Assembly (NCBI GenBank): GCA_963841435.1
Contig: CAWJCS010000006.1
Span: 1,216,001-1,280,000, forward strand
Source of the DNA: an uncultured delta proteobacterium
GTDB taxonomy: Bacteria; Myxococcota_A; Polyangia; Polyangiales; Polyangiaceae
Reading direction: 5' to 3'
DNA: 64,000 nucleotides
The notes under the pieces were generated by a model, which saw nothing but the letters and a program-made list of their open reading frames with translations, made no database searches and was not told the DNA's origin. Shown piece after piece: positions 2,754-54,144 of the stretch (position 1 is its first letter; every line of letters begins with the position of its first letter). A program made the translations under genes and the position numbers.

Positions 2754-2841
2754 ACGGGCTCACGCGGAGAGGAGGCAGGGCTAGGTCGCCGGGCCGCGCG
2801 ACGCTCGACGTTCCCCGCCCGGCCGGGGTACCTTGTTGCTG

Positions 2842-3696
2842 GTGACGAGCGAGCGTGACCCGAAAGGCCTCTCGGGGGCGCCCAACAGCGGGCCTCGGCG
2901 TTTCTGGCTCGAGCACGACGGACCGAGCATCGAGCTCCGGCGCGGGCAGATGCTGATCGGGCGCAGCTCCGGCTGTCACATCGTGCTCGAGGACAACATG
3001 GTGTCGCGACGGCACGCCGAGCTTCGCGTATCGGACGACGCCGTGACGGTTCAGGATCTCGGCAGCGTCAACGGGATCTACGTCAACGGCGAGCGCGTGC
3101 GCGAGCCTCGACGACTGCGCGACGGCGATCGCCTGCTCGTCGGGCAGCGCGAGCTCAAGTTGAAGAGCCTCGAGCGCGACTCGATGCCTGCCATGCACGA
3201 TCGGCTCACGGCCGAGACCCTGGGCGGCGAGCTGCGCGTCCCCGCGCCGACGAGCGAGGACACGACGCACATCGGAGACGTGTTCGACGTGCTCGGCAGC
3301 GTCGCCAACAAGGTGCTCGCGTTGGATCGTGGCGACGAGGCGGAGCGCATTCTGTCGGGCGTGCTCCAGAGCGTTCTGCGCGAGGTCGCCGAGGGGCGCC
3401 CCGTGTCGTCGGCAACGACCGAGCAGGCCGCCGGCTACGCGGTGCGCATCGCCGCCGCGACCGGTCGGGCGCACTGGCTCGACTACACCATCGAGCTTTA
3501 CGGGACGCTCGGGCGCGTGCTGCCCGGTCCGATCGTCGATCAGCTCTACGACGTCGTGCGCAAGGCGCGCGGCATGAACGTGCAGGCGCTCAGGGCTTAC
3601 GTCGCGACGTTGCAGGGCGGTGCCGCGAGTCTGCGGCCTGCGGAGCGCTTCGTATTGCAGCGGCTCGAGGGGCTCGAGCGCGTGCTGTTGAGCTAG
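2842..3696 (+). CDS. FHA-domain protein (paralog 3)
   Basis: IGRSSGC, VSRRHA, DLGSVNG; C-terminus ALDRGDEAERIL...PAERFVLQRLEGL matches paralog 2. Start may be 2833. Confidence 0.85.
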   Translation: MTSERDPKGLSGAPNSGPRRFWLEHDGPSIELRRGQMLIGRSSGCHIVLEDNMVSRRHAELRVSDDAVTVQDLGSVNGIYVNGERVREPRRLRDGDRLLVGQRELKLKSLERDSMPAMHDRLTAETLGGELRVPAPTSEDTTHIGDVFDVLGSVANKVLALDRGDEAERILSGVLQSVLREVAEGRPVSSATTEQAAGYAVRIAAATGRAHWLDYTIELYGTLGRVLPGPIVDQLYDVVRKARGMNVQALRAYVATLQGGAASLRPAERFVLQRLEGLERVLLS

Positions 3697-20472: not shown

Positions 20473-21135
20473 ATGAGGTTTATCAACGTTGGTTTTGGTC
20501 TCGTGGTGTCCGGCGCCCTGGCTACGGCAGTCTCCGGATGCGGTGGTGGTGACGACGACGCGAACGCCCCAATCGTGCCGAGCACGGGCGGCAGCTCGGC
20601 CACGGGTGGCAGCTCCGGCACGGGCGGCACCTCCGGCACGAGCACGGGCGGCACGACGAGCACGGGCGGTACGGGTGGCACGCTGAGCACCGGCGGCACG
20701 AGCGGTACCGGTACTGGCGGTACGGGCGGCACATTGAGCACAGGCGGCACGAGCGGCACGGGCGGCACCGCTGGCATGGCGGGCGGCGGTGGTCGCTTCG
20801 GTGGCGACGCTGGCGGCGCCGGTATGGCGGGCGGCGGTGGTCGCTTCGGCGGCGACGCTGGCGGCGCCGGCATGGCTGGTGGCGGTGGTCGCTTCGGCGG
20901 CGACGCCGGTGGCGCCGGCATGGCTGGCGGCGGTGGCCGCATGGGTGGCAACGCTGGCGGCGGTGGCCGCATGGGTGGCAATGCCGGCAACGCTGGCGGC
21001 GGTGGCCGCATGGGTGGCAATGCCGGCAACGCTGGCGGCGGTGGCCGCATGGGTGGCAACGCTGGCGGCGGCGGCCGCATGGGCGGCAACGCTGGCGGCG
21101 CTGGCATGGCCGACGGCGGAACCGCCGGCGCCTGA
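20473..21135 (+). CDS. Gly-rich lipoprotein with eight GGGGR[F/M]GG[D/N]AG repeats and no globular domain
   Basis: SD GGAGG at 20461; AVSGC lipobox; Thr/Ser/Gly tract followed by the Arg-containing repeats. Confidence 0.85.
   Translation: MRFINVGFGLVVSGALATAVSGCGGGDDDANAPIVPSTGGSSATGGSSGTGGTSGTSTGGTTSTGGTGGTLSTGGTSGTGTGGTGGTLSTGGTSGTGGTAGMAGGGGRFGGDAGGAGMAGGGGRFGGDAGGAGMAGGGGRFGGDAGGAGMAGGGGRMGGNAGGGGRMGGNAGNAGGGGRMGGNAGNAGGGGRMGGNAGGGGRMGGNAGGAGMADGGTAGA
20776..21105 (+). repeat. Intragenic tandem repeats: three 48-nt units (MAGGGGRFGGDAGGAG), then five 30/39-nt units (GGGGRMGGNA[GNA])
   Basis: 48-nt periodic ATGs at 20776, 20824, 20872 and 20920. Confidence 0.9.
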
Positions 21136-21234: not shown

Positions 21235-22752
21235 ATGCGGCTCCTGGGTCGCCTGAAGAGCGTTTATCTCGGCGCCGACGAGCGCAGTCTCGCCGCGGGG
21301 CGCATCGCGCTCGCGGTCGTTCTGCTGCTCGATCTCGCGCGCCGCGCGCGCGAGATCGACACCCTCTACTCCAACGATGGGCTCTTGCCGAACCACACGG
21401 TGCTGTGGCGGCCGTCGTCGAGCCACGTCTTCTCTTTCTTCTTCATGGCGTCGCACGGCTACGAGGCGGCGCTCGGCTTCGCGCTCTGTGCGCTCGTCTA
21501 CGCGGGCCTCCTCTTCGGCCATAAAACCCAGTTCTGCCAAGTCGCGAGCCTTCTGTGCGTGCTCAGCCTGCACGGCCGCACGCAATTCGCGCAGAACGGC
21601 GGCGACAACGTGCTCGGCGAGCTCTGCCTGTTCGCGGCGTTCTTGCCGCTGGGGCGTCGCTACGCGCTCGATGCCCGCGAACAGGCCGCCGGGCAGCGCG
21701 ATGTCCGGTCGCTCGCCATGCTCGCGCTACGTCTCCAGATTGCCACGATCTACGCGTTCAACGCGCTGCAGAAGACGGGACCGACCTGGCGCGACGGGAG
21801 CGTCGTCCACTACATGCTGCACCAGGACGGCATCGTCACGATGCTCGGGGCCTGGCTGCGCGACCGGCTCACGCTGGGCGAATCGGCCGTCATGACGCAT
21901 GCGGCGCACGCGATCGAGGCGGCGTTGCCGTTGTTGATCCTGTCTCCGGTCGCCGTGCCCCACGCGCGGCGCCTCGCAGCAGCGCTCATGCTCGCCTTGC
22001 ACGGTGGCTTTGCGCTGGCTCTGAACCTCGGGATCTTCTCCTTCGCGATGCTCGCGTTCGCCCCATTTTTACTGCCGGGGGAGGACATCGAGCGTTTCGT
22101 CGGCTGGCTCGATAGAACTTCGAAGCGCCACCTCGGCGACACGCGACGACGACTCGTCGCATGGCGCGATCGCTTGCCCCAGGTGACTTCGCGAGGGCGT
22201 CCGGCCCGAACGGAGCCGCACCGGCGCCGTGCGCTCGTGCGACTCGGCGAGGTGACGATCGTCGTCATCATGGGCGTGGCCGGTTGCCAGGAGCTGGTCG
22301 ACAACCCCGTCACGGGGGTCGACCTCTCGTGGCGTCCGCGCGCCGTGGGCGTCGCCGTCGATTACCTGCAGATGCTCGAGGCCTGGGCGATGTACGCGCC
22401 CGACGCGCCCACCACCGACACGAACCTCTGGGTCAACGCCGTGACGCGCGACGGCCGCCACGTCGATCCGTTCAACGAGCGGGCGAGCCCCGGCGCACCC
22501 CGCCCGGGCGGCGCGATTCCCGCGCATCTCGGCCAGAGCTGCCTGCTCTACGCCTACGCGCTCCGCATCCCCTACCAGCCGGCGTACCACCGAGCGCTCG
22601 GCGAATGGATCCTGCGTTACCCGGAGCGCACGGGGCACGCCGGGGACGAGATCCGCTCGTTTTCCGTCTACGCCGTCGAGGACGAGAGTCCCCCGCCGGG
22701 AGAGCGCGAGCCACGACGGGCGAAAGCGCGGTTCTTATTCGGCTATCCGTGA
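21235..22752 (+). CDS. HTTM-domain (vitamin K-dependent carboxylase-like) membrane protein
   Basis: D.RSLA..RI, LYSNDG.LP, NGGD, LPLGRRY.LD, LQIA.IY, K.G..W.DG, LH.G, W.MYAP. Confidence 0.8.
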   Translation: MRLLGRLKSVYLGADERSLAAGRIALAVVLLLDLARRAREIDTLYSNDGLLPNHTVLWRPSSSHVFSFFFMASHGYEAALGFALCALVYAGLLFGHKTQFCQVASLLCVLSLHGRTQFAQNGGDNVLGELCLFAAFLPLGRRYALDAREQAAGQRDVRSLAMLALRLQIATIYAFNALQKTGPTWRDGSVVHYMLHQDGIVTMLGAWLRDRLTLGESAVMTHAAHAIEAALPLLILSPVAVPHARRLAAALMLALHGGFALALNLGIFSFAMLAFAPFLLPGEDIERFVGWLDRTSKRHLGDTRRRLVAWRDRLPQVTSRGRPARTEPHRRRALVRLGEVTIVVIMGVAGCQELVDNPVTGVDLSWRPRAVGVAVDYLQMLEAWAMYAPDAPTTDTNLWVNAVTRDGRHVDPFNERASPGAPRPGGAIPAHLGQSCLLYAYALRIPYQPAYHRALGEWILRYPERTGHAGDEIRSFSVYAVEDESPPPGEREPRRAKARFLFGYP

Positions 22753-22762
22753 CGAGGCGACG

Positions 22763-23827
22763 CTAGTCGGTGTCCCACCAGAAGTAGCTGTGGATGCGAA
22801 ACTCCTGCTCGGGGAGCTTCTTTCCCTCGAGCTCGCCCGCGAAGTGAGCGTCGTAGCTCGACATGGGATTCGCGCGCATCACGAGGCGGCCGCGCAAGGT
22901 GTCCCCGATGTGAACCTCGAGGGGCTTCGCGAAAACGAAGCGCAGCTGCGCCCAGTGCGTGCGTGGCGCGTCGGGCGCCGTGCTCAAAACGACGCGCTCG
23001 GTCGTGCCCTCGAAGGTGACGTCGAACCAGCCGGCGAGCCCGTGAATCGTGCCGGGGTGTGTCGCGACGAACTCGAACGGAAGCACGATCTCGGCGAGGT
23101 CGTCGAGCGGTACCGTGCGAAAGTCGAAGCCGTGCACCACGGGGCTTGCCATGAGCAGGCGGGGAGGGACGAAGCCGAGCGCCGGCATCGCGGAGAGTTC
23201 CTCCGCCGCCACCGACCCGAGGCCCGACAGGTCAACGCCGAAGAAATCGGTCTGCTCCCAGAACTTCTTACGGGAGACGCGGCCCTCGAAAAGCTTCTGA
23301 TCGACGAAGGGGGCGAGCCAGAGCCGACCGGTCGTTGGAAAGAGCGTGCCGCCAGGGCGGAGGAAGCGATCACGCGCGATCAGGAACGCCTCGACCATCC
23401 GCTCGTGGAACAGGAAAAATCCCCACGGCTCCGAGATGATCACGTCGATCGGCTCGGGCATGGAGAGCTCGGCGAGCTGGCCCTTGACGATGACGACCCG
23501 GTCGCTCATGCCATTGTGCTCGAACAGGCGGCGCGCATGCTCGGCCGTTGCCGTTCCCTCGACGGCGTACACCTTGCGAGCGCCGGCGAGCGCCGCGAAC
23601 GCCGACAGGATCCCCGTGCCCGCGCCCACGTCGAGCACGACCTTACCCGCGAAGTCGGCGCGATTGCCGACGATGCCCTGCCGGTAGGCGCCGGTGCGCT
23701 CGCGATCCTCGAGCATCGCCTGTTGGTTCGCGAGGAAGTGGTAGTGGGCCGAATGGACGGCACCCCACTCCGGGAGCACGGGAACGAGCTTGCTCCCGGC
23801 GTCCGGTTTCGGGCTCGAAGACGCCAT
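22763..23827 (-). CDS. CARM1/PRMT4-like type I protein arginine N-methyltransferase
   Basis: QQAMLEDRERT, VLDVGAGTGILS, VYAVE, IDVIISEPWGFFLFHERM (double-E loop), FL.PGG.LFP, FW.Q..F.GVDLS, HGLA.WFDV.F, LSTAP..P.THW.Q. Confidence 0.9.
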   Translation of the reverse strand: MASSSPKPDAGSKLVPVLPEWGAVHSAHYHFLANQQAMLEDRERTGAYRQGIVGNRADFAGKVVLDVGAGTGILSAFAALAGARKVYAVEGTATAEHARRLFEHNGMSDRVVIVKGQLAELSMPEPIDVIISEPWGFFLFHERMVEAFLIARDRFLRPGGTLFPTTGRLWLAPFVDQKLFEGRVSRKKFWEQTDFFGVDLSGLGSVAAEELSAMPALGFVPPRLLMASPVVHGFDFRTVPLDDLAEIVLPFEFVATHPGTIHGLAGWFDVTFEGTTERVVLSTAPDAPRTHWAQLRFVFAKPLEVHIGDTLRGRLVMRANPMSSYDAHFAGELEGKKLPEQEFRIHSYFWWDTD

Positions 23828-23850
23828 CGTAGAGCTCTTGGATCGAGGGC

Positions 23851-25170
23851 TCAGCCGCCCTTTGCCGCACAGCGCATGGCGCACTGCAGGTCGCCGGAGG
23901 AACAGCCGCACTTGCTGCGCGGCTTGGCTGGCGCGGCCGCAGGCTCGCTGCCGCCGCTCGTGCTCGAACCCGAGCTCGACGACGACTTCTTCGTGGAGGT
24001 CACGCGGCGAGTCGTGGTCGTCCTCTTTTTCTCGGGCTTGTCGGGTCCCTCGTCGTCCGCCGACCCCGTGGGTGGTGGGGCCGCCGTGAGGGTCGGGGTG
24101 GGGGTCGGCGTTGGTGCTGCTGCCGGGGGAGGAGGCGGCAGTGGCGCCTCGACGACGGGCGGCGGCGGAGCCGGACGCAGGATGACGGCGAGCGCCACGA
24201 TCACGGCGGCGGCGACGATGGCGATGGCGATGAAGAGGCCCGTCTTGCTCTTCTGTGGCGACGCGAGATCCGCCGCCGTGAGCCCGCCGCCGAGCGGTGA
24301 GCCCAGGCCGAGCGGGGCCGAGACGCCGAGCGGCGCCGTGCCGAGCGGTGACATCGCCGGGGCCGCAGTGAGTGGCTGGGCCGCGGCGGCGCCCTCGGAC
24401 TTCACGGCGGCGGCCGTGAGTGCCTTCAGATCGATGAGACCCGAGTCGTCACGGCTCGCGGTCGTGGAGGAGCCGCGTGGAGCCGGCGCCGACCGCGACG
24501 GCGACGACGCCGACGCCAACGTCAGCGCGCTCAGCGAGAACAGCACCGACGACTCATTGCGCGCGCCGGTTGCTCCAGCCAACCCGCCGCCTCCCAATCC
24601 CCCGGGTTCGGGAGCGCTGGTCGCGACGTCCTCCTCGCTGCCGGCGCGGTCGATGCGTCCGAAGAGGTCGCTGCCCGCTGCCCGCGCGGGCCGAGCGGCC
24701 GCTCTCACGGGGCTTGGTTGGGGCGGCGGCGCTTCGGACTTGGCTTCCCAGGGCGATGCCGCGGGGGCCGGCGCCGCTTGCGCGTGGCCTGCCGCCGCGT
24801 GCAGCGCTTCCACGATCTCGTCAACCTCGGACAGCGCCTTCCAATCCTCGAAGCCGTCTGCCCAAACGTACGTTTCGCCCGTGATCTGGCCTGCATTGTA
24901 GGCTGCAACGATCTCGGCGACCGGCATCGTGCGCTGATCGCCGTCACCGAGGTCCACCGAATACTCAGGGCCTGTTTCCGCCTGTTCGCTCATGGGATGC
25001 TCTTCTGCCGGTTCCCCGCCCGTTGAAGCCGTGACGGACGGAGGGTTCACCTTACCGTCGATGACGATGGTCGCGCCGCACTTGCGGCAGCGGATCTTCG
25101 CCAGCCGAGACACCACCTTCTCGTCGGAGATGGAGTACTTCGCGGAGCAGGAGGGACAACTTATCTTCAC
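23851..25170 (-). CDS. Zinc-ribbon (MJ0042-type) + GYF_2 membrane protein, GltJ/AgmX-like N-terminus
   Basis: CPSC.AKY.I.D...RCRKC; GQITGETYVWADGFEDWK.LSEV; RNESSVLFSL and SGLIDL motifs; TM; Pro-rich tail; C-terminal CGC..GDLQCAMRC. Confidence 0.85.
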   Translation of the reverse strand: MKISCPSCSAKYSISDEKVVSRLAKIRCRKCGATIVIDGKVNPPSVTASTGGEPAEEHPMSEQAETGPEYSVDLGDGDQRTMPVAEIVAAYNAGQITGETYVWADGFEDWKALSEVDEIVEALHAAAGHAQAAPAPAASPWEAKSEAPPPQPSPVRAAARPARAAGSDLFGRIDRAGSEEDVATSAPEPGGLGGGGLAGATGARNESSVLFSLSALTLASASSPSRSAPAPRGSSTTASRDDSGLIDLKALTAAAVKSEGAAAAQPLTAAPAMSPLGTAPLGVSAPLGLGSPLGGGLTAADLASPQKSKTGLFIAIAIVAAAVIVALAVILRPAPPPPVVEAPLPPPPPAAAPTPTPTPTLTAAPPPTGSADDEGPDKPEKKRTTTTRRVTSTKKSSSSSGSSTSGGSEPAAAPAKPRSKCGCSSGDLQCAMRCAAKGG

Positions 25171-25482
25171 GCTTGGCCTCGTGAGGGACCCGGGCTGGGG
25201 TACAGGGATACTATCATCGGAAAGAGACCGCTCCGGTCCAGCGGTCGCATCATTAACCAAGCAATACGGAGCGCTCTGCGATTCGGTCTGGCCTGCCTAG
25301 CAGACGGTGAAACGGGCGCCGGAGCGCACCCTTTTAGCTAGATTCGCCCGTGAGCGCCAGCTTCAAGGGCGAGAGCCTGCCCGACCGAGTTCGACACCCC
25401 CTTCTTCCAAAGGCTTTGCTAGTTTTTGGGGGCTCGGGGCCGGGAGGGTCGGAAAACGCTGGGATTTGGAGGCCTTCCCGGG

Positions 25483-26146
25483 TCAAGGCTCGCCCTCCGG
25501 CCCCCGGCCCAGCCGGGAAAGGGCGGTCAGCGCGGCGATTCGCTCGGCGAGCTCCGGATTTTCGCCGTCCTCGGCACGCAATGCACGAAACAACTCGTGC
25601 GTCGCGGCCGCGAGATCGCCTTCGGTGATTCGCGCTTCCGCGCGCTTGGCGTAGAGCTTCGCCGCCTTCGAACGGCAGAGCTCGTCGAGTGAACGAGCTC
25701 CCGTGTCGGCCCGATCGGCCGTCGTGCCGTCGGAGTCAACATCGAGCCGGAGCTCGCCCTTCGCGAGGGCGAGATCGTAGGCCGCGCGACGCTCCGGCAC
25801 GATGAGCGCCTGGTACGCCTCGACGCCCCGCCGGAAGACTCGCAGGGCAATCCGACGCGCAGCGTCATCGCCGCGCGACTGGGCGTCGGGGTGGAACGCC
25901 AGGGAAAATTCGTGGAACGCGCTTCGGATCGCGTCGGCGTCCGCAATCTCGAGGACGCCGAGGATCTCGTAGTAGCTCGCGTCGTCGAGCACGCCGTCCC
26001 ACGCCATCAGGTGCGCGAGATTCGAGCGACGCCGCGTCCTCGGCGGGCTCGAGAGGATCGAAGCCGGCGTCGGGTGACGGCTCGATGGGCGGCCGGCTCG
26101 AGCCCGGACCAGCGCCGTCGTCGCCCGCATCGTTTGCTTCGCTCAT
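25483..26146 (-). CDS. J-domain (DnaJ-type) co-chaperone; possible frameshift at ~26021 (intact alternative start ATG 26007)
   Basis: SYYEILGV...FHPD...EAYQAL..PERRAAYD; C-terminal TPR-like helices. Confidence 0.85.
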
Positions 26147-26163
26147 GTAAAAACGAGCACCGC

Positions 26164-28420
26164 TCAACCGGTGCGCTGGGCGGCGTGACGCGCTGCGAGG
26201 CCGGCGACGTGTTCGGGCTCGGGAATGGCGACCATGTGGACCTTCGCCAACGTCTCTCGCCCGGTCTGCACGTCGCGTGCGCTCACCTCGAGCAGACCGT
26301 CCGTGTCGAGCGCGAAAGTCACCGCGACCTCCACCGTGCCGCGCGAGCCTGCGCGCAGACCCGTGAGCTCGAGCTCTCCGAGCAACGTGTTTTCAGCGAA
26401 CCGACTCGACTCGCCCTGACCGATGCGCACTCGTACAATCGTCTGGTTGTCGGATGCCGTGACGAAGTTTCGTCGCTTGCTGCAGGGCACGGGCGTGTTG
26501 CGAGCGATCAACGAGTCGGAGTAACCGCCGATGGTCTCGACGGAGAGCGTGAGCGGCGTCACGTCGATGAGCACGGGAGGTGGAGCCGCGAGCGGCATGG
26601 GGGCGGGCGCTGGGAGCGGAGCGGTGAGCGCTGCGGCCGCCGCCGCGGGAGCGGGCACCGAGGGCAGCGGGGGACCGGCGTCCGCGGGCGGCGGCATGGG
26701 CGGTGCGGGGCCGACCCGCGTGGGAGCGTCGTCGGGCACCTCGGGAAGCGGCAAGGACGCTTCGTCGAGATCCTCGAGCTCGGCGGGCTCGAGTAGCTCG
26801 ATGTCGTGGACGCTCGTCGAGGCCGGCGGAGGGGGTGGGGGCGGCGGAGGGGGCGGAGGTAGAGGTAGGGGCGGTAGCCGTGGCGCTGCGCGCCCAGGGG
26901 TGTCCGGTGGAGACAGCGGTGGCGCGAGCGCTGCCGTGCGGGCCGCGTCGCCGAGGCCGCTGCCGGTCTTCGTCCGCGCGCGGGCGCCGAGGCCGAGCAG
27001 CGTCGACCCTTCACGGTGCGTCGGGGTCTCGGGCGTGAGCGCCGCGGGCGGCTGCGCAACGCCCGGTCGCGTCACCATGCCGCGGCGTGGCTCGAACGGC
27101 TTGGTCTCGGGTGCGACCTCGCCCTCGGCCACCATGCTGCTCAGCCTGACGCGCCCGGGTTCGGCGGGGCCGCCGCTCGCGTCGCCGCTCGGTCGCGTCG
27201 TGCGCGCGACGCCGCGCTGCGTGTTCGCAAGGCGTGCAGGCACCGGCGGCGCGGGCACCGGGGCGCGTCGCCGCTCCGTTCCCGAAAGCGCGCTCGCCTG
27301 AATCGCGGCGCCCACCGCGACGACCTCGTCGGGGCTGACGTGGTGGTTTCCTTCGCGGCGGAAGAATTCCTCCACGCGCCGGCGAACGAGGGGAATTCGT
27401 GTCGACCCGCCGACCAGCAGCACCTGATCGAGGTCGGTCACGGAGAGCCGCGCCACGCCGAGCGCCTCGCGGCAAACGTCGAACGTCTGATCGACGATCG
27501 GCGCGATCGTGATCTCGAGCTCGCCCCGCGTCATCTCGAAGTTGAAATCGATCGAGCGCCCGTCGGGACCGTGCACGACGTCCTCCATCGAGACGCTCGC
27601 GGAGTCGTCCGTCGAACAGGCGCTGCTTCAGATCCTCGGCGGCAATCCGGAAGCGGTCGAACAGCACCGGGTCGGTGCGCACGTCGTAGCGGTGCTTGCG
27701 GAGGAAGAGCTCCGCCATGCGCTCGGCGATCGCGACGTCGATGTCGTCGCCGCCGAGGAACGTGTTGCCGGCCGTCGCGAGCACCTCGAAAACGTTGTTC
27801 GACAGATCGAGCAAGGTCACGTCGAACGTGCCGCCGCCGAAATCGTAGACGGCGATGCGCTCGGCGCTGTCCTTGCCGTAGCCGTACGCAAGCGCGGCGG
27901 CCGTGGGCTCGTTGAGGATGCGCAGCACCTCGAGTCCCGCGACGCGTCCGGCCACCTTCGTGGCGGCACGTTGCAGGTCGTTGAAATTTGCCGGCACGGT
28001 GATGACGGCCTGCTCGACGGGCACTCCGAGCGCGGCCTCGGCCACGGTCTTCGCCTTACGCAGCACGAACGCGCTGATCTCGGGCAGCGTGTAGGTTTCG
28101 CCGCGCGCGAACACGAGCGTGGACTGGCCGGGGCCCTCGCGCATCTCGAAGGGCAAGCGCGAACGCGCGCGCCGGACCTCCTCGGTGTCCCAGCTGCGTC
28201 CGATGAGCCGCTTGACCGAGTAGATCGTGCTCCCGGGGTCGATGATGCGGCGATCCTTGGCCGTGCGTCCGACGAGCACGCTGCCGTTCGGGTGGAAGGA
28301 CACCACCGAGGGAATCAGCGTGTTTTCCCGCTCGTCCGGCAGTGGCTGAGCTTCGCCGTCCCGAACGGCCGCGACGACGGTGTTGGTCGTCCCGAGGTCG
28401 ATGCCGACGACCTCGCTCAC
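26164..28420 (-). CDS. Hsp70 (DnaK-family paralog) with long Pro-rich insertion and no lid domain; apparent frameshift at ~27615
   Basis: GIDLGTTN, TVPANFND.QR, NEPTAAAL, DFGGGTFD, LVGGSTRIP, PDEVVA.GAA, LIDVTPL, T.SDNQ. The two ORFs join as KQRL|STDDSASV. Confidence 0.88.
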
Positions 28421-28968
28421 GACCGTACCCCCGCTTCGATCTCGATCTCGCGAAGCACGGCGTCGTACCAACGCGCGATCGTCCCTTCGAACGGCCACAT
28501 CCAGCCGTAGGCGCCGCCCGTGAAGCGTTCGACGATGGTCTTGCGAAGCGACGGCGAGCGCGCGCTCTCGAGCCCGCGCAGGTGTGCCGTCGCGCGCAGC
28601 GTCTCGCGATAGGCTTCCCACTCGAGCCGCGCGCGACCGTACGCGAGCCCGATGGGGAAGAACGGGACGAGGTAGACGAATGCCATCAAGGCAAGGCCGT
28701 AGCGTCGGCGCTGGCGGAGGTGGACGCGCTCGTGGTGGAGCACGATCGCGCGGTCGATGTCGGGTGTGTCGTCCCAGGCGAACGGCGTGTAGAGCGTGTA
28801 GCCGAGCACGGTGTGGTAGCGGGTGAGGTACTCGCGCTGTGCCCCGAGCGTGAGGACGCGCAACAACCAATCGATGGCGACCGAGAGTGGGTCGCCACGC
28901 TTGGGCACGAGTCGGAATGCGGGGAATTCCTCCGTGATTTCAGCGATCAAGCCCTCGGCGAGCGCCAC
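28417..28968 (-). CDS. Hypothetical protein with HExxH zincin-like motif
   Basis: LHHERVHLRQ, a hydrophobic segment, then LEWEAY; GTGA-coupled to the Hsp70 gene. Confidence 0.7.
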   Translation of the reverse strand: MALAEGLIAEITEEFPAFRLVPKRGDPLSVAIDWLLRVLTLGAQREYLTRYHTVLGYTLYTPFAWDDTPDIDRAIVLHHERVHLRQRRRYGLALMAFVYLVPFFPIGLAYGRARLEWEAYRETLRATAHLRGLESARSPSLRKTIVERFTGGAYGWMWPFEGTIARWYDAVLREIEIEAGVRS

Positions 28969-29004
28969 GGGCCCGAGGCTAGCACCCTGCGGCCCGAGTT
29001 GGGG

Positions 29005-29940
29005 TCAGATCTGTGGCGCACCGAGCCGCTCGCCGGGGCGGAGCACGCGGCCGTTGACGAGGTCGCGTCCGCTCACCTCGCGCCGTCCCTCGGCTGTGGC
29101 CCTCACGATCTCGATCGAGCCGCTTCCGGTCAACACCCAGGGCGAGCCGCCTTCCACCTGCACGGTACCCGGCGGGCCCGGCCGGTCGGCTTCGCTCGCG
29201 CGAACGGCGCCGAGGCGCAGCGTCTTCGGCCCGATCGTCGTGAACGCACTCGGGCGCGGCGCGAGCGCTCGCACCTGGTTCGTGATGCTCGACGCCGACG
29301 CCGAAAAGTCGACGCGCCCGTGCTCGCGCTCGAGCGGCGGCGCGAGCGTGGCGAGCGACGCGTCTTGCGGTTCGGGGCGGAGCTCGCCCCTGACGGCGCG
29401 AGCGAGGTCACGATCGACGACCGTGGCCGCAAGCTCCCCGAGGCGCACGGCGAGCTCACCCCCGGTTTCGTCGGCGCCAATCGCGATGGTGTGGCGGCTG
29501 AGCACGGCGCCCGTGTCGAGTCCCTCGTCCATCTGCATGAGCGAGATCCCCGTCTCGGTCTCGCCGTGTAAAATGGCCCACTGGATGGGCGCCGCACCCC
29601 GGTAACGCGGCAGGAGCGACGCGTGCAGGTTGAGCGCCCCCGCGGGCGCGACGCCGAGCACGTCGGGCGGCAGGATGCGGCCGTACGCGAGCACGAGCAG
29701 CACGTCCGGATGTCTGGCGTCGAGCCAGGCGCGAAGCGCGCCGTCGCGCACTTTGGGCGGCTGAAACACCTCGAGCCCGCGCTCGGCCGCTTCGAGCTTG
29801 ACGGCCGGAGGGCGCAGCTCGAGTCCCCGGCCTGCAGGCCGATCGGGCTGGGTCACGACTCCCACGACCTCCGCCACTTTCGTGAGAGCGGCGAGGGAGG
29901 GGACGGCGATCGCCGGTGTGCCGAAGAAGATCGCGCGCAT
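29005..29940 (-). CDS. fmt: Methionyl-tRNA formyltransferase
   Basis: FFGTP, VTQPDRPAGRG, AYGRIL, NLHASLLPRYRGAAPIQ, MDEGLDTG. Confidence 0.95.
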   Translation of the reverse strand: MRAIFFGTPAIAVPSLAALTKVAEVVGVVTQPDRPAGRGLELRPPAVKLEAAERGLEVFQPPKVRDGALRAWLDARHPDVLLVLAYGRILPPDVLGVAPAGALNLHASLLPRYRGAAPIQWAILHGETETGISLMQMDEGLDTGAVLSRHTIAIGADETGGELAVRLGELAATVVDRDLARAVRGELRPEPQDASLATLAPPLEREHGRVDFSASASSITNQVRALAPRPSAFTTIGPKTLRLGAVRASEADRPGPPGTVQVEGGSPWVLTGSGSIEIVRATAEGRREVSGRDLVNGRVLRPGERLGAPQI

Positions 29941-30173
29941 GGCCAGGTCGCAGGCGGGCAACGGCAGACTAACAGAGGGCGGGTCAACCCGCCGAAGCCA
30001 CCAAGCGGCTCACCGAGCCCCCGATGCGCCAGCCCGCTCGGGACCCGGCCGCGAGGCTAGGTCGCCCGAGGGCGCGAGCCCTCGGCAAAGCAGCCCCGGG
30101 GGAGCGTGGGAGCAAATCGGAACGGAGGGGGCTGGCTTTGTCGTCGGGGCTGATTACGTTGCGATTCTAGGCC

Positions 30174-32624
<2,451 letters not shown>

Positions 32625-51633: not shown

Positions 51634-51711
51634 CAGTCGTCGGCCGCGTCGCGACGCTTGACGTGGTAGGGCTAGGCGGCGCGAGAGATCTTCGGATCAG
51701 GGTTTCGGAAC

Positions 51712-54144
<2,433 letters not shown>

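Follow-up and report, generated by a model that had tools for sequence, protein, structure and literature searches.

Can a bacterium encode a true CARM1? This enzyme, also known as PRMT4, is a much-studied eukaryotic regulator and drug target, and the way in which it finds its targets remains a matter of debate. In a 64,000-nucleotide stretch of DNA from an uncultured myxobacterium of the Polyangiaceae (the window, in what follows), an earlier note had recognized a gene for a CARM1-like arginine methyltransferase. The locus therefore raises the questions of whether the protein belongs to the CARM1 subfamily in particular, whether the gene is native to its host and what the enzyme could do there. 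We think it likely, from sequence and predicted structure, that this is a native Polyangiaceae-type gene for a member of the CARM1/PRMT4 subfamily that consists of the catalytic core only, a type I protein arginine methyltransferase that is cytoplasmic and competent for catalysis.

The gene and its catalytic core

The open reading frame extends over 22763..23911 on the reverse strand and yields a protein of 354 aa (translation P0001) when started at the ATG at 23827. We prefer this start because most close relatives have lengths of 344–357 aa and because it leaves a distance of 23 nt from the upstream stop; starting at the alternative GTG at 23911 would make the gene overlap its upstream neighbour. 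No intron was found in the gene. Its features, all on the reverse strand, are as follows.

22763..23827, reverse strand: coding sequence of the CARM1/PRMT4-subfamily protein arginine methyltransferase, stop included; 354 aa, catalytic core only (open reading frame, Pfam, PDB search, AF2/Foldseek, trees)
23828..23850, reverse strand: spacer of 23 nt from the upstream ZnR-GYF stop to the methyltransferase ATG, with AAGAG 8–12 nt before the ATG
23741..23755, reverse strand: HSAHY (residues 25–29), where PRMTs have the alpha-X motif YFxxY; the last Tyr (Y29) alone is retained
23333..23665, reverse strand: Rossmann-type SAM-binding domain (about residues 55–165), with motif I VLDVGAGTGILS at nt 23603–23638 and the post-I acidic residue E90
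23396..23437, reverse strand: double-E loop ISEPWGFFLFHERM (residues 131–144), with E133 and E142 as arginine-clamping glutamates and M144 as the Met retained in type I enzymes
23189..23299, reverse strand: predicted helix-turn-helix at the place of the PRMT dimerization arm (residues 177–213), including FWEQTDFFGVDLS and lying inside the PRMT_C match
22859..23326, reverse strand: PRMT beta-barrel and oligomerization subdomain (residues 168–323; Pfam PF22528), including the THW loop

The earlier note had described a protein of about 354 aa with the hallmarks of PRMTs in the expected order, and each string that it quoted was found, in that order, in the translation: HSAHY, QQAMLEDRERT at residues 35–45, VLDVGAGTGILS at 64–75, VYAVE at 86–90, ISEPWGFFLFHERM, FWEQTDFFGVDLS at 189–201, HGLAGWFDV at 262–270 and STAPDAPRTHWAQ at 282–294. 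We aligned the protein with its bacterial relatives, which fall into clade A (that of the window protein) and clade B, and with eukaryotic CARM1. Each of the catalytic residues Y29, R44 (the SAM-carboxylate Arg), D66, G68/70/72, E133, E142 and T290-H291-W292 is present in all 19 clade A rows. The glycines and D66 of motif I are invariant in all groups, and the position of E90 holds E or D (E in 18 of the 19 clade A rows). The Pfam family Methyltransf_25 covers residues 64–160, and strands and helices alternate in this domain of the AF2 model. The PRMT_C family (PF22528) matched with 81.6 bits against a cut-off of 27 (E 8.3e-23); in the model the arm segment forms helices at 177–189 and 200–213, and beta strands occupy 216–333. 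The THW loop (nt 22952–22960, within STAPDAPRTHWAQ) is invariant in every group examined.

In the PDB search alignment, E133, E142 and M144 lie opposite CARM1 E258, E267 and M269 (CARM1 residue numbers were derived as the 3b3f chain index plus 139). M144 is kept in 17/19 clade A rows. Together with M38, which lies opposite M163, it makes up what we take to be the pair of type I-determining methionines, both of them present.

Three positions depart from the familiar pattern. The YFxxY motif was called degenerate in the earlier note, and it does read HSAHY; the one Tyr that remains, Y29, is nevertheless invariant: all 11 clade B rows and all 30 named eukaryotic CARM1 rows have it too. H25 occurs in 18/19 clade A rows, at a position that is Y or F in all 30 of the named eukaryotic rows. 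Because H25 and H28 are both conserved in clade A, HxxHY is a trait of the clade and not a sign of decay. Within the double-E loop stands W135, where all other groups have M, I or L, so that the substrate pocket may differ. Finally, Ala119, which is not conserved within clade A, occupies the position of CARM1 E244, presumably an adenine contact; SAM binding is thus unlikely to be textbook at every contact.

A Pfam scan found neither the EVH1/PH-like N-terminal domain (PF11531) nor the C-terminal activation region, and the core begins at about residue 20 of 354. Residues 1–30, judged by eye, contain no hydrophobic signal sequence.

To judge by the conserved residues, the protein is most probably a functional arginine methyltransferase of type I. 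Its core would be composed of alpha-X/Y helices, the Rossmann SAM-binding domain, the dimerization arm, the beta-barrel and a short C-terminal tail of CARM1 type. By homology, the enzyme would bind SAM and clamp the substrate arginine between E133 and E142, beside the THW loop; two successive methyl transfers to the same terminal nitrogen would then give MMA and, from it, asymmetric dimethyl-arginine. The working form is putatively a head-to-tail dimer.

Membership of the CARM1 subfamily

Sequence, fold, two trees and signature residues show that the protein is a member of the CARM1/PRMT4 subfamily, beyond being a PRMT. In a phmmer search of the PDB, CARM1 matched residues 27–333 of the query with an E of 1.3e-88. 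The best 21 matches were all CARM1, at 299–301 bits; the next PRMT scored 189, and PRMT6/2/1/8/3 scored about 160–178 bits. The AF2 model (pLDDT 93.6, pTM 0.89) gave a matching picture in Foldseek, with CARM1 structures taking ranks 1–41 among the best 50 (TMq 0.88–0.93, rmsd 1.2–1.5 Å, 42–44% identity) and PRMT6/2/1 coming after them with an rmsd of 2.4–4.6 Å. In both of two maximum-likelihood trees, the protein was placed inside the CARM1 clade, with support of 100/94 (95 rows) and 100/99 (83 rows).

The alignment adds a set of residues that are specific to CARM1: Q35-Q36, P134 (SEP), R143 (ERM), R296, N320 and S324-Y325. These signatures, which were derived from our own alignment rather than from the literature, are all present in the window protein. 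Clades A and B share them with all 30 of the named CARM1 rows from eukaryotes; among the PRMT6-like and distant bacterial PRMTs they are seldom or never seen. The likeness to CARM1 in particular, which the earlier note had proposed, is thus borne out by scores of about 300 against at most 189 bits, by the fold, by both trees and by the signature residues. The CARM1 strings that it gave agree with the aligned CARM1 chains (qqqnmmqdyvrt, isepmgymlfnerm, fwyqpsfhgvdls and lstapteplthwyq), and two of the checks that it suggested had the same outcome: the model fits CARM1 crystal structures at a TM of 0.9 and an rmsd of 1.2 Å, and the phylogeny puts the protein within the CARM1 clade.

That note had named grouping with PrmA, the ribosomal protein L11 methyltransferase, or with another barrel-less class I methyltransferase as a result that would refute it. 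In the structure search the protein falls in with CARM1 instead, and none of the best 50 Foldseek rows is a PrmA structure. PrmA has the class I SAM-binding domain in common with the window protein but lacks the PRMT barrel, the double-E loop and the THW loop. PrmA models match residues 57–132 only, at 31–35 bits against cut-offs of 22 (Pfam) and 183 (NCBIfam, where prmA scores 34.6 bits). No NCBIfam model attains its cut-off for the window protein, and the NCBI name for these proteins is merely ‘class I SAM-dependent methyltransferase’, an annotation gap.

Compared with the mammalian CARM1 core (PDB 3b3f, 5dwq, 5k8v), the window protein has the same fold over about 337 aligned columns (TM 0.92/0.95, rmsd 1.2 Å, 42–44% identity) and an identical order of motifs. 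The two have in common the double-E and THW loops, the type I Met, the SAM-carboxylate Arg and the QQ, SEP, ERM, R296, N320 and SYD signatures, and the window protein also has the C-terminal tail past the barrel. It differs from mammalian CARM1 in lacking EVH1/PH and the C-terminal region (354 aa vs about 600), in having HxxHY in place of YFxxY, in the exchanges W135/M260, F137/Y262, H141/N266, A293/Y417 and A119/E244, and in belonging to a bacterial host and an operon-like setting. H141 is found as well in 21/30 named eukaryotic rows.

Core-only proteins of CARM1 type also exist in eukaryotes, namely in oomycetes and other stramenopiles, early-diverging fungi and Fonticula (for example P0280 from Aphanomyces, P0316 from Rozella and P0102 from Fonticula). 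They are of comparable length (about 350–440 aa) and, according to precomputed Pfam lists, likewise lack PF11531, and their branch depth in the CARM1 clade equals that of the bacterial clade. Apart from their eukaryotic hosts, they differ in being 39–40% identical to clade A and in retaining Y or F as the first residue of YFxxY. Since PF11531 is missing from many eukaryotic members (oomycetes, fungi, Fonticula), this domain defines animal-type CARM1 and not the whole subfamily.

The earlier note went too far in treating PRMTs as generally eukaryotic: Planctomycetota, Actinomycetota and other Myxococcota MAGs also encode full-length PRMT-fold proteins complete with the PRMT_C barrel. Bacterial PRMT-fold proteins were known before, and the window protein, of CARM1 type, joins them. 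Those that we compared (loci L002–L011, from Planctomycetota, Actinomycetota, Myxococcales and ‘Deltaproteobacteria’ MAGs) resemble it in their bacterial hosts, in a length of about 310–330 aa and in having the double-E and THW loops. They are, however, only 29–32% identical to the CARM1 groups, lack the CARM1 signatures and form the outgroup in both trees; the L004 protein is nearest to PRMT3/6/1, not to CARM1. At these distant loci PRMT_C was above its cut-off in 7/9 as scanned, the open reading frames of L004, L006 and L010 covering the gene imperfectly. The neighbourhood of the window gene recurs at 0/9 of them, with no Hsp70, DnaJ or GYF neighbours.

Searches of the literature outside subscription journals yielded no work on CARM1 from bacteria, myxobacteria included, and none that combines CARM1 with Myxococcota or ‘arginine methyltransferase’ with a myxobacterial name. 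The protein offers an entry to bacterial protein arginine methylation, a scarcely explored field, and, being a bacterial orthologue of 354 aa whose active site is intact, a minimal and easily expressed model of the CARM1 core.

Nativeness and ancestry of the lineage

The gene is native to a Polyangiaceae-type myxobacterium and has long been resident there, as its codon usage, its flanks, its contig and the gene order in a second genome establish. Its GC3 is 0.879 (window mean 0.851) and its codon-adaptation index 0.709 against a mean of 0.657, rank 28 of 32, with the other 31 window open reading frames as reference; both agree with the host, as the earlier note had judged by inspection. The contig is 1.86 Mb long and the flanking genes are housekeeping genes. 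A scan of genome contigs for relatives, dominated by the generic motif I pattern, matched at least 597 stretches and gave, among the matches listed, at least one clade A locus (L001), in an independent Polyangiaceae MAG. This locus has the same nine-gene order, running through fmt, Hsp70, J-domain, ZnR-GYF and PRMT and then the convergent HTTM, Gly-Arg lipoprotein and FecR genes, and a methyltransferase 65% identical to that of the window. Shared order together with this level of identity points to vertical descent.

An artefact could take the form of eukaryotic contamination, a chimeric assembly or a recent unintegrated transfer. The GC content of the region, 0.669, is slightly below that of the window (0.703), and otherwise nothing speaks for such an artefact. 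Against it stand the host-like GC3 and codon adaptation, the intron-free gene with its bacterial-style 23-nt spacer after the upstream gene, the long contig, the gene order of the independent MAG and the roughly 80 related clusters from many metagenomes. We regard an artefact as scarcely conceivable and this explanation as effectively refuted already; the view of the earlier note that contamination was unlikely is upheld on these broader grounds.

The bacterial clade comprises about 80 protein clusters; our set of relatives contained 77 clade A rows, four of them with an organism name, and 11 clade B rows, one of them with a name, and the label ‘Polyangiaceae’ rests on four named sequences. 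Identity between its sub-clades is 44–49%, compared with 42–47% between eukaryotic supergroups and 39–40% between clade A and eukaryotic CARM1. In the 83-row tree, clades A and B together form one of about six basal lineages of the CARM1 clade, without a resolved order among them. AU tests rejected neither nesting with fungi (p 0.292) nor a placement in which the bacterial clade is the sister group of eukaryotic CARM1 as a whole (p 0.335). The earlier note had named ancient presence and acquisition from a eukaryote as the two possible histories, and our trees and AU tests are compatible with either. FastTree made the bacterial clade sister to a fungi/Fonticula group with a support of 97, a position that neither site-heterogeneous maximum-likelihood tree reproduced. 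We have therefore dropped a fungus-like donor as a conclusion, although the AU test would allow it. Amino-acid make-up did not separate bacterial from eukaryotic proteins among the rows without a taxon label.

We conclude that the lineage entered or left bacteria by an ancient inter-domain transfer. Taxonomic breadth would make passage from eukaryote to bacterium the more probable course. The reverse, in which the bacterial lineage is as old as the eukaryotic one, a myxobacterium-like donor passed the gene to the eukaryotic stem and EVH1 later replaced a proline-rich reader that acted in trans, would be compatible with the basal position of clades A and B, with the AU result for the sister position and with sub-clades that diverge as deeply as supergroups do; we think it improbable. 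If it were true, the donor would have a surviving relative in the window gene, and ZnR-GYF may still play the reader role in Polyangiaceae. Whichever way it ran, this is a clear inter-domain transfer of a ‘chromatin-type’ enzyme that has long been retained in one bacterial family.

Conserved neighbours and possible substrates

The genes upstream of the methyltransferase, on the same strand, are the following.

23851..25260, reverse strand: gene for the ZnR-GYF membrane protein; zinc ribbon at the N terminus, GYF domain of bacterial type (Pfam Zn_ribbon_4, GYF_2)
25483..26130, reverse strand: gene for a J-domain (DnaJ-domain) protein of the conserved neighbourhood (Pfam DnaJ, E 1.4e-11); context
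26164..28870, reverse strand: Hsp70-like gene with a long Pro-rich insert, of the conserved neighbourhood (Pfam HSP70); context only

The ZnR-GYF gene probably has its true start at the GTG of codon 31. Its product matches two PDB entries of the ‘Adventurous gliding motility protein X’, the ZnR (7zok, E 2.9e-6) and the GYF domain (7z3c, E 0.077), and its architecture resembles the ZnR plus GYF of GltJ/AgmX. It is 68% identical to its L001 orthologue, the ZnR and GYF parts being nearly identical, and a spacer of much the same length, 23 nt in the window against 22 nt in L001, separates it from the methyltransferase gene. We infer that the two genes are most likely co-transcribed; this operon and the adaptor role considered below have two genomes as their base. 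The conserved pairing with a GltJ-like switch protein suggests a link between arginine methylation and signalling through proline-rich motifs in myxobacteria.

This pairing bears on the choice of substrate. A study of human CARM1 (PMC5458078) describes its substrates as proline-rich and not as GAR motifs, reports that the EVH1 domain is required to recognize them and states that, without EVH1, recombinant substrates were not methylated. An enzyme reduced to its core may accordingly depend on a partner or have other targets. The GYF domain of bacterial GltJ binds a proline-rich sequence, according to PMC11135422, and the co-encoded GYF module may supply recognition of such sequences, as EVH1 does in animal CARM1. 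Our preferred guess at the substrates, offered as no more than an inference, would be Pro-rich, Arg-containing segments of cytoplasmic proteins.

A PRMT fold might instead act on something other than protein arginine, as a methylase of peptides or natural products comparable with the PRMT-like domains of secondary-metabolite operons, or might serve for binding without catalysis. Natural-product pathways abound in myxobacteria, and the clade A changes near the active site (HxxHY, W135 and a position 119 without a conserved acid) would fit. The closest bacterial sisters of eukaryotic PRMTs, moreover, are described in a review (PMC3417536) as lying in antibiotic-like biosynthesis operons and NRPS proteins. 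The window protein, however, falls within the CARM1 subfamily and is not a sister of the PRMTs, and the conserved neighbourhood holds no NRPS, PKS, dioxygenase or amine-oxidase gene. Conservation of double-E, THW and the type I methionine throughout the clade suggests that arginine chemistry has been under selection, and we consider a different target unlikely.

Two further readings keep the arginine chemistry and change the substrate. Many myxobacteria are predators, and the enzyme could be an exported effector that methylates the proteins of a eukaryotic prey organism or host, in the manner of the eukaryote-like methyltransferases known from certain intracellular pathogens; the identity to eukaryotic CARM1, about as high as that between supergroups, would suit this. 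Such an enzyme would have to leave a cell in which it shows no N-terminal hydrophobic signal by eye, has no secretion-system genes in its neighbourhood and is tightly linked, in a second genome too, to a chaperone pair and a ZnR-GYF module that faces the cytoplasm. It also lacks the EVH1 on which human CARM1 depends for its substrates (PMC5458078), and we hold an effector role to be very unlikely. The other reading takes as substrate the neighbouring Gly-Arg repeat lipoprotein (20473–21135, forward strand), two genes away, whose RGG/GAR-like sequence has eight GGRxGG repeats (seven in its positional L001 counterpart), and it would make the enzyme PRMT1-like rather than CARM1-like. GAR motifs are indeed the classical substrates of PRMTs other than CARM1, but CARM1 does not methylate them, as the same study states. 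Both lipoproteins, furthermore, carry a lipobox and signal sequence (VSGC / LTAC) and are thus exported, whereas the methyltransferase has no signal, and the FecR-lipoprotein-HTTM string is separate, on the opposite strand and convergent on the methyltransferase gene. A PRMT1-like enzyme acting on this lipoprotein therefore seems highly improbable, and we favour a cytoplasmic enzyme of CARM1 type.

The chaperone pair is kept in the second genome as well. The J-domain protein is 63% identical to that encoded at L001 3888–4451. The Hsp70-like gene of the window is in two reading frames, split near 27,616 and represented by the overlapping open reading frames 27011–28870 and 26164–27588; the two parts match residues 31–385 and 385–878 of the L001 Hsp70.

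Gene model and family assignment

The methyltransferase gene was delimited as follows.

22763..23911, minus strand: methyltransferase ORF as listed; from the ATG at 23827 it encodes 354 aa (protein P0001)

We take 23827 as the start because beginning at the alternative GTG (23911) would create an overlap with the upstream gene, which encodes a protein with zinc-ribbon and GYF domains (ZnR-GYF). The ATG lies 23 nt past the TGA of that gene and is preceded by AAGAG at 8-12 nt; 354 aa fits the relatives, which are mostly 344-357 aa. All eight sequence strings that the earlier note had quoted for a CARM1/PRMT4-like arginine methyltransferase occur in the translation (residues 25-29, 35-45, 64-75, 86-90, 131-144, 189-201, 262-270 and 282-294). 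Upstream of the stop the frame is free of further stop codons for 562 codons (22763-24448, minus strand), which takes it across the 3' portion of the ZnR-GYF gene in a different frame, a common occurrence at 70% GC. Many long overlapping ORFs lie on both strands of this interval, as expected at such GC content, and ORF length alone is therefore a poor guide in the window.

Pfam detects the PRMT barrel/oligomerization subdomain (PF22528) at residues 168-323, with 81.6 bits against a cut-off of 27 (E 8.3e-23), together with generic class I methyltransferase domains. No NCBIfam model reached its cut-off, the best being prmA with 34.6 bits against 183, which is why relatives carry the generic NCBI name 'class I SAM-dependent methyltransferase'. 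A sequence search of the PDB returned 83 distinct sequences at E <= 0.001, with CARM1 filling the top 21 places (E 1.3e-88 to 4.6e-88, 299-301 bits, query residues 27-333), followed by Arabidopsis 'PRMT 4.2' (3r0q; 189 bits) and then PRMT6, 2, 1, 8 and 3 at ~160-178 bits. The AlphaFold2 model, made with 33 relatives as input, has a mean pLDDT of 93.6 and a pTM of 0.89. Among the best 50 rows of a Foldseek comparison with the PDB, ranks 1-41 are CARM1 chains (TMq 0.88-0.93, rmsd 1.2-1.5 Å, 42-44% identity) and ranks 42-50 are PRMT6, PRMT2 and PRMT1 (TMq 0.80-0.83, rmsd 2.4-4.6 Å); since AlphaFold was trained on the PDB, this agreement and the sequence match are not independent of each other. 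A grouping with PrmA or another methyltransferase lacking the barrel, which the earlier note had named as refuting its reading, is not what was observed: the barrel is found by Pfam and CARM1 heads both PDB comparisons.

We then compared individual residues in a 95-row alignment that included 19 rows of clade A (the bacterial clade holding the window protein), 11 of the adjoining clade B, 30 named eukaryotic CARM1, seven PRMT6-like and nine distant bacterial PRMT rows. CARM1 numbering, taken as the chain index in the PDB alignment plus 139, places the two double-E glutamates at 258 and 267, their known positions in CARM1. Window residues E133, E142, M144, M38, R44 and H291 align with CARM1 E258, E267, M269, M163, R169 and H415 respectively. 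All 19 clade A rows retain Y29, R44, D66, G68, G70, G72, E133, E142 and the T290-H291-W292 loop, with E90 in 18/19 and M144 in 17/19. Six signatures (Q35-Q36; P134, giving SEP rather than SEW; R143, giving ERM; R296; N320; S324-Y325) are common to clades A and B and eukaryotic CARM1, and set these rows apart from the PRMT6-like and distant bacterial ones. H141 is the usual state (19/19 in A, 11/11 in B, 21/30 in named eukaryotic CARM1), and N, as at CARM1 N266, occurs in only 9/30. The degenerate YFxxY motif noticed earlier is a trait of clade A, which reads HxxHY (H25 in 18/19 rows, H28 in 17/19); W135 replaces M/I/L in 18/19 rows, and the window protein has Ala119 where CARM1 has E244, a position that is not conserved within clade A. 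From this alignment we conclude that the arginine-methylation machinery is intact and under selection, with some cofactor and substrate contacts that differ; the window protein is predicted to be enzymatically active.

Relatives, phylogeny and direction of transfer

Of 8,000 candidates scored in a word-indexed protein search, 2,833 reached E <= 1e-10. When the 50%-identity representatives were scanned in full, 12,822 reached E <= 1e-3 and 1,040 reached E <= 1e-30. Some 80 clusters are 52-68% identical to the window protein; the three that are named are all 'Polyangiaceae bacterium' MAGs, and many carry the JGI pipeline label 'histone-arginine methyltransferase CARM1'. Below 50% identity, metagenome proteins, a 'Deltaproteobacteria bacterium' MAG protein (P0083) and eukaryotic CARM1 are mixed. 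Among homologues of 621-2000 aa, 145 matched at E <= 1e-40, none above 52% identity; those named are all eukaryotic CARM1/CARMER/PRMT4, and in this search the bacterial clade showed no long, fused version.

A FastTree was built from 326 full-length rows, with nine distant bacterial PRMT-like proteins as the root; locus L007 and any fragment that failed to span query residues 45-315 were left out. Clade A (77 rows) had support 100, A with the 11 rows of B had 99, and A+B was sister to a group containing fungi and Fonticula (97). Two IQ-TREE analyses placed the window protein inside the CARM1 clade. In the first (LG+C20+F+G4 PMSF; 95 of the 326 rows, 350 columns) this clade held 80 rows (100/94*), A and A+B each had 100/99*, and A+B was sister to a group with all named eukaryotic CARM1 rows, an arrangement not strongly supported (89/76 and 93/84). 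The second (83 rows, 364 columns) added named alveolates, land plants, green algae, Mesostigma, sponges and a cnidarian; the CARM1 clade (71 rows, 100/99*, stem 0.73) opened in an unresolved fork of six lineages: A+B (97/99*), Holomycota (92/88), stramenopiles (100/93*), animals with plants and alveolates (99/88*), and the pairs P0219/P0284 and P0335/P0109. The nearest outgroup rows are PRMT6-like, a label resting on the PDB matches of one member. The CARM1-type identity claimed at the outset is thus borne out by the PDB search, Foldseek, trees and signature residues alike, and subfamily membership is robust.

Mean identity over the kept columns was 44% between A and the B sub-clades, 39-40% between A and the eukaryotic groups, 42-47% among the eukaryotic groups, 33-35% between any CARM1 group and PRMT6-like rows, and 29-32% between any CARM1 group and distant bacterial PRMTs. 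The bacterial CARM1 lineage is old and internally deep. AU tests rejected neither placement of that lineage: forcing A+B together with 12 Holomycota-type rows cost 8.74 lnL (p 0.292), and forcing the other 48 CARM1-clade rows together, with A+B sister to the rest, cost 3.67 lnL (p 0.335). We lean, by a fair measure, towards transfer from eukaryote to bacterium, because the named eukaryotic members are broad (animals, fungi, Fonticula, stramenopiles, alveolates and green plants) whereas the named bacterial ones are few (four Polyangiaceae sequences and one 'Deltaproteobacteria' MAG).

The view in the earlier note that PRMTs are generally treated as eukaryotic needs revision. Among the matches listed, loci L002-L011 carry full-length PRMT-like genes (~310-330 aa, 32-37% identical to the window protein) in Planctomycetota, Acidimicrobiaceae, Solirubrobacterales, other Actinomycetes, Chloroflexia, Myxococcales, 'Deltaproteobacteria' and one further Polyangiaceae MAG, with PRMT_C above cut-off in the correctly delimited ORFs. 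The planctomycete protein (L004) is closest in the PDB to PRMT3/6/1 (~160-167 bits), not CARM1 (129 bits). No neighbourhood is shared among these loci or with the window gene, and none of the nine examined has Hsp70, J-domain or GYF neighbours. Together with a review (PMC3417536), they indicate that the architecture per se is not new in bacteria. What is unusual is a bacterial orthologue of one specific eukaryotic paralogue, CARM1, a label that automatic pipelines have already given to its relatives. No study of a bacterial CARM1 was found in the mostly open-access literature searched. Eukaryote-like proteins are a familiar theme in myxobacteria, and we expect a specialist to be moderately surprised; a CARM1 core that is intact, present across the family and part of a probable operon nevertheless offers something useful to test.

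Gene neighbourhood

The window is ordinary bacterial chromosome (70.3% GC), encoding superoxide dismutase, homoserine dehydrogenase, aspartate carbamoyltransferase, PurH, Lon, Fmt, a ParA-type ATPase and others, with no mobile-element domains among the scanned ORFs; the contig is 1,857,774 bp long. Host-like codon usage, noted earlier, holds on measurement: GC3 of the methyltransferase gene is 0.879 (window mean 0.851, sd 0.029) and its codon-adaptation index 0.709 (mean of other window ORFs 0.657, sd 0.046), each ranking 28/32. Elsewhere lie two signalling proteins of kinds common in myxobacteria, a response-regulator receiver fused to DUF4388 (51676-54144, plus strand, 822 codons) and an FHA-domain protein (2785-3696, plus strand).

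Codon usage, the flanking genes, the long contig and a matching gene order in a second genome mark the methyltransferase gene as native. In the sole close locus among the matches listed from the genome collection, L001 from a Polyangiaceae MAG (methyltransferase 65% identical), nine genes are arranged and oriented as in the window. The methyltransferase strand has Fmt, a small ORF that only the window annotation shows, Hsp70-like, J-domain, ZnR-GYF and methyltransferase, and the converging strand has genes for an HTTM membrane protein, a Gly-Arg repeat lipoprotein and a FecR/TPR protein.

20473-21135, plus strand: Gly-Arg repeat lipoprotein-like ORF, 220 aa; lipobox VSGC, 45% Gly, eight GGRxGG repeats
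L001 8681-9406, minus strand: its positional counterpart; seven GGRxGG repeats of a different unit (GFGQGGRTGGQGG)
21235-22752, plus strand: HTTM-domain membrane protein (vitamin K-dependent carboxylase family), converging on the methyltransferase gene with 10 nt between stop codons
23851-25260, minus strand: ZnR-GYF membrane protein, 469 codons; Pfam Zn_ribbon_4 and GYF_2
26164-28870, minus strand: Hsp70-like gene, broken near 27,616 into two overlapping frames, 27011-28870 and 26164-27588

Identity between window and L001 is 63% for the J-domain protein, 68% for the ZnR-GYF protein and 50% for the HTTM protein, whose gene follows the lipoprotein and FecR/TPR genes on its own strand in both. 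Because the spacer between ZnR-GYF stop and methyltransferase ATG is equally short in L001 (22 nt), these two genes are probably co-transcribed. The J-domain and ZnR-GYF genes are at least 222 nt apart, and a terminator-like hairpin (26157-26174, minus strand; six pairs, five G-C, then TCGTTTTT) lies exactly at the Hsp70-like stop, one of eight such sites in 22500-30200 where 3.2 are expected. This hairpin may set the Hsp70-like gene apart from the three genes that follow it (J-domain, ZnR-GYF and methyltransferase), and in view of gap and hairpin the chaperone pair may be a separate unit. The L001 Hsp70-like orthologue is a single 878-aa ORF, the window parts matching its residues 31-385 and 385-878; a frameshift, an error in sequencing or decay to a pseudogene may account for the split. 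It is striking to find RGG/GAR-like repeats (the lipoprotein has units such as GGGGRFGGDAGG and GGGGRMGGNAG) at a distance of two genes from an arginine methyltransferase, yet the lipoprotein looks exported and is encoded on the opposite strand.

The ZnR-GYF protein and proposed targeting

The ZnR-GYF protein resembles GltJ/AgmX in architecture; it has a hydrophobic helix (approximately residues 341-361), and its C-terminal part is rich in Pro. The PDB match to its ZnR is the ZnR structure from Myxococcus 'Adventurous gliding motility protein X' (GltJ/AgmX, 7zok; E 2.9e-6), and its GYF region weakly matches the solved GltJ GYF domain (7z3c; E 0.077). ZnR (residues 32-74) and GYF (99-154) are nearly identical between window and L001, while the adjoining methyltransferase is just 65% identical. 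As the L001 protein begins at the residue aligned with V31, the true start probably lies 30 codons downstream of the annotated TTG.

GltJ is described as ZnR-linker-GYF-membrane anchor, its GYF domain binding a proline-rich sequence of AglZ, and ZnR-GYF proteins are proposed as general switch modules (PMC11135422). Human CARM1 sites are reported to be proline-enriched rather than GAR motifs; substrate recognition needs the N-terminal EVH1 domain, whose fold binds proline-rich sequences, and CARM1 140-608 did not methylate recombinant substrates (PMC5458078). Combining these findings, we hypothesize that the co-encoded GYF module may aim the core-only bacterial methyltransferase at its targets. 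Candidates would be the ZnR-GYF linker and the Pro-rich insert (~230 aa) that both Hsp70-like orthologues carry between ATPase and substrate-binding parts, for example at KPFEPR and PTRVG, which are kept in both genomes; linker and insert each have conserved Arg adjoining Pro. HSP70 R469 is listed as a human CARM1 site in a review table (PMC11466993), and both bacterial Hsp70-like proteins appear to carry its counterpart, which is, however, an Arg that Hsp70 conserves in general.
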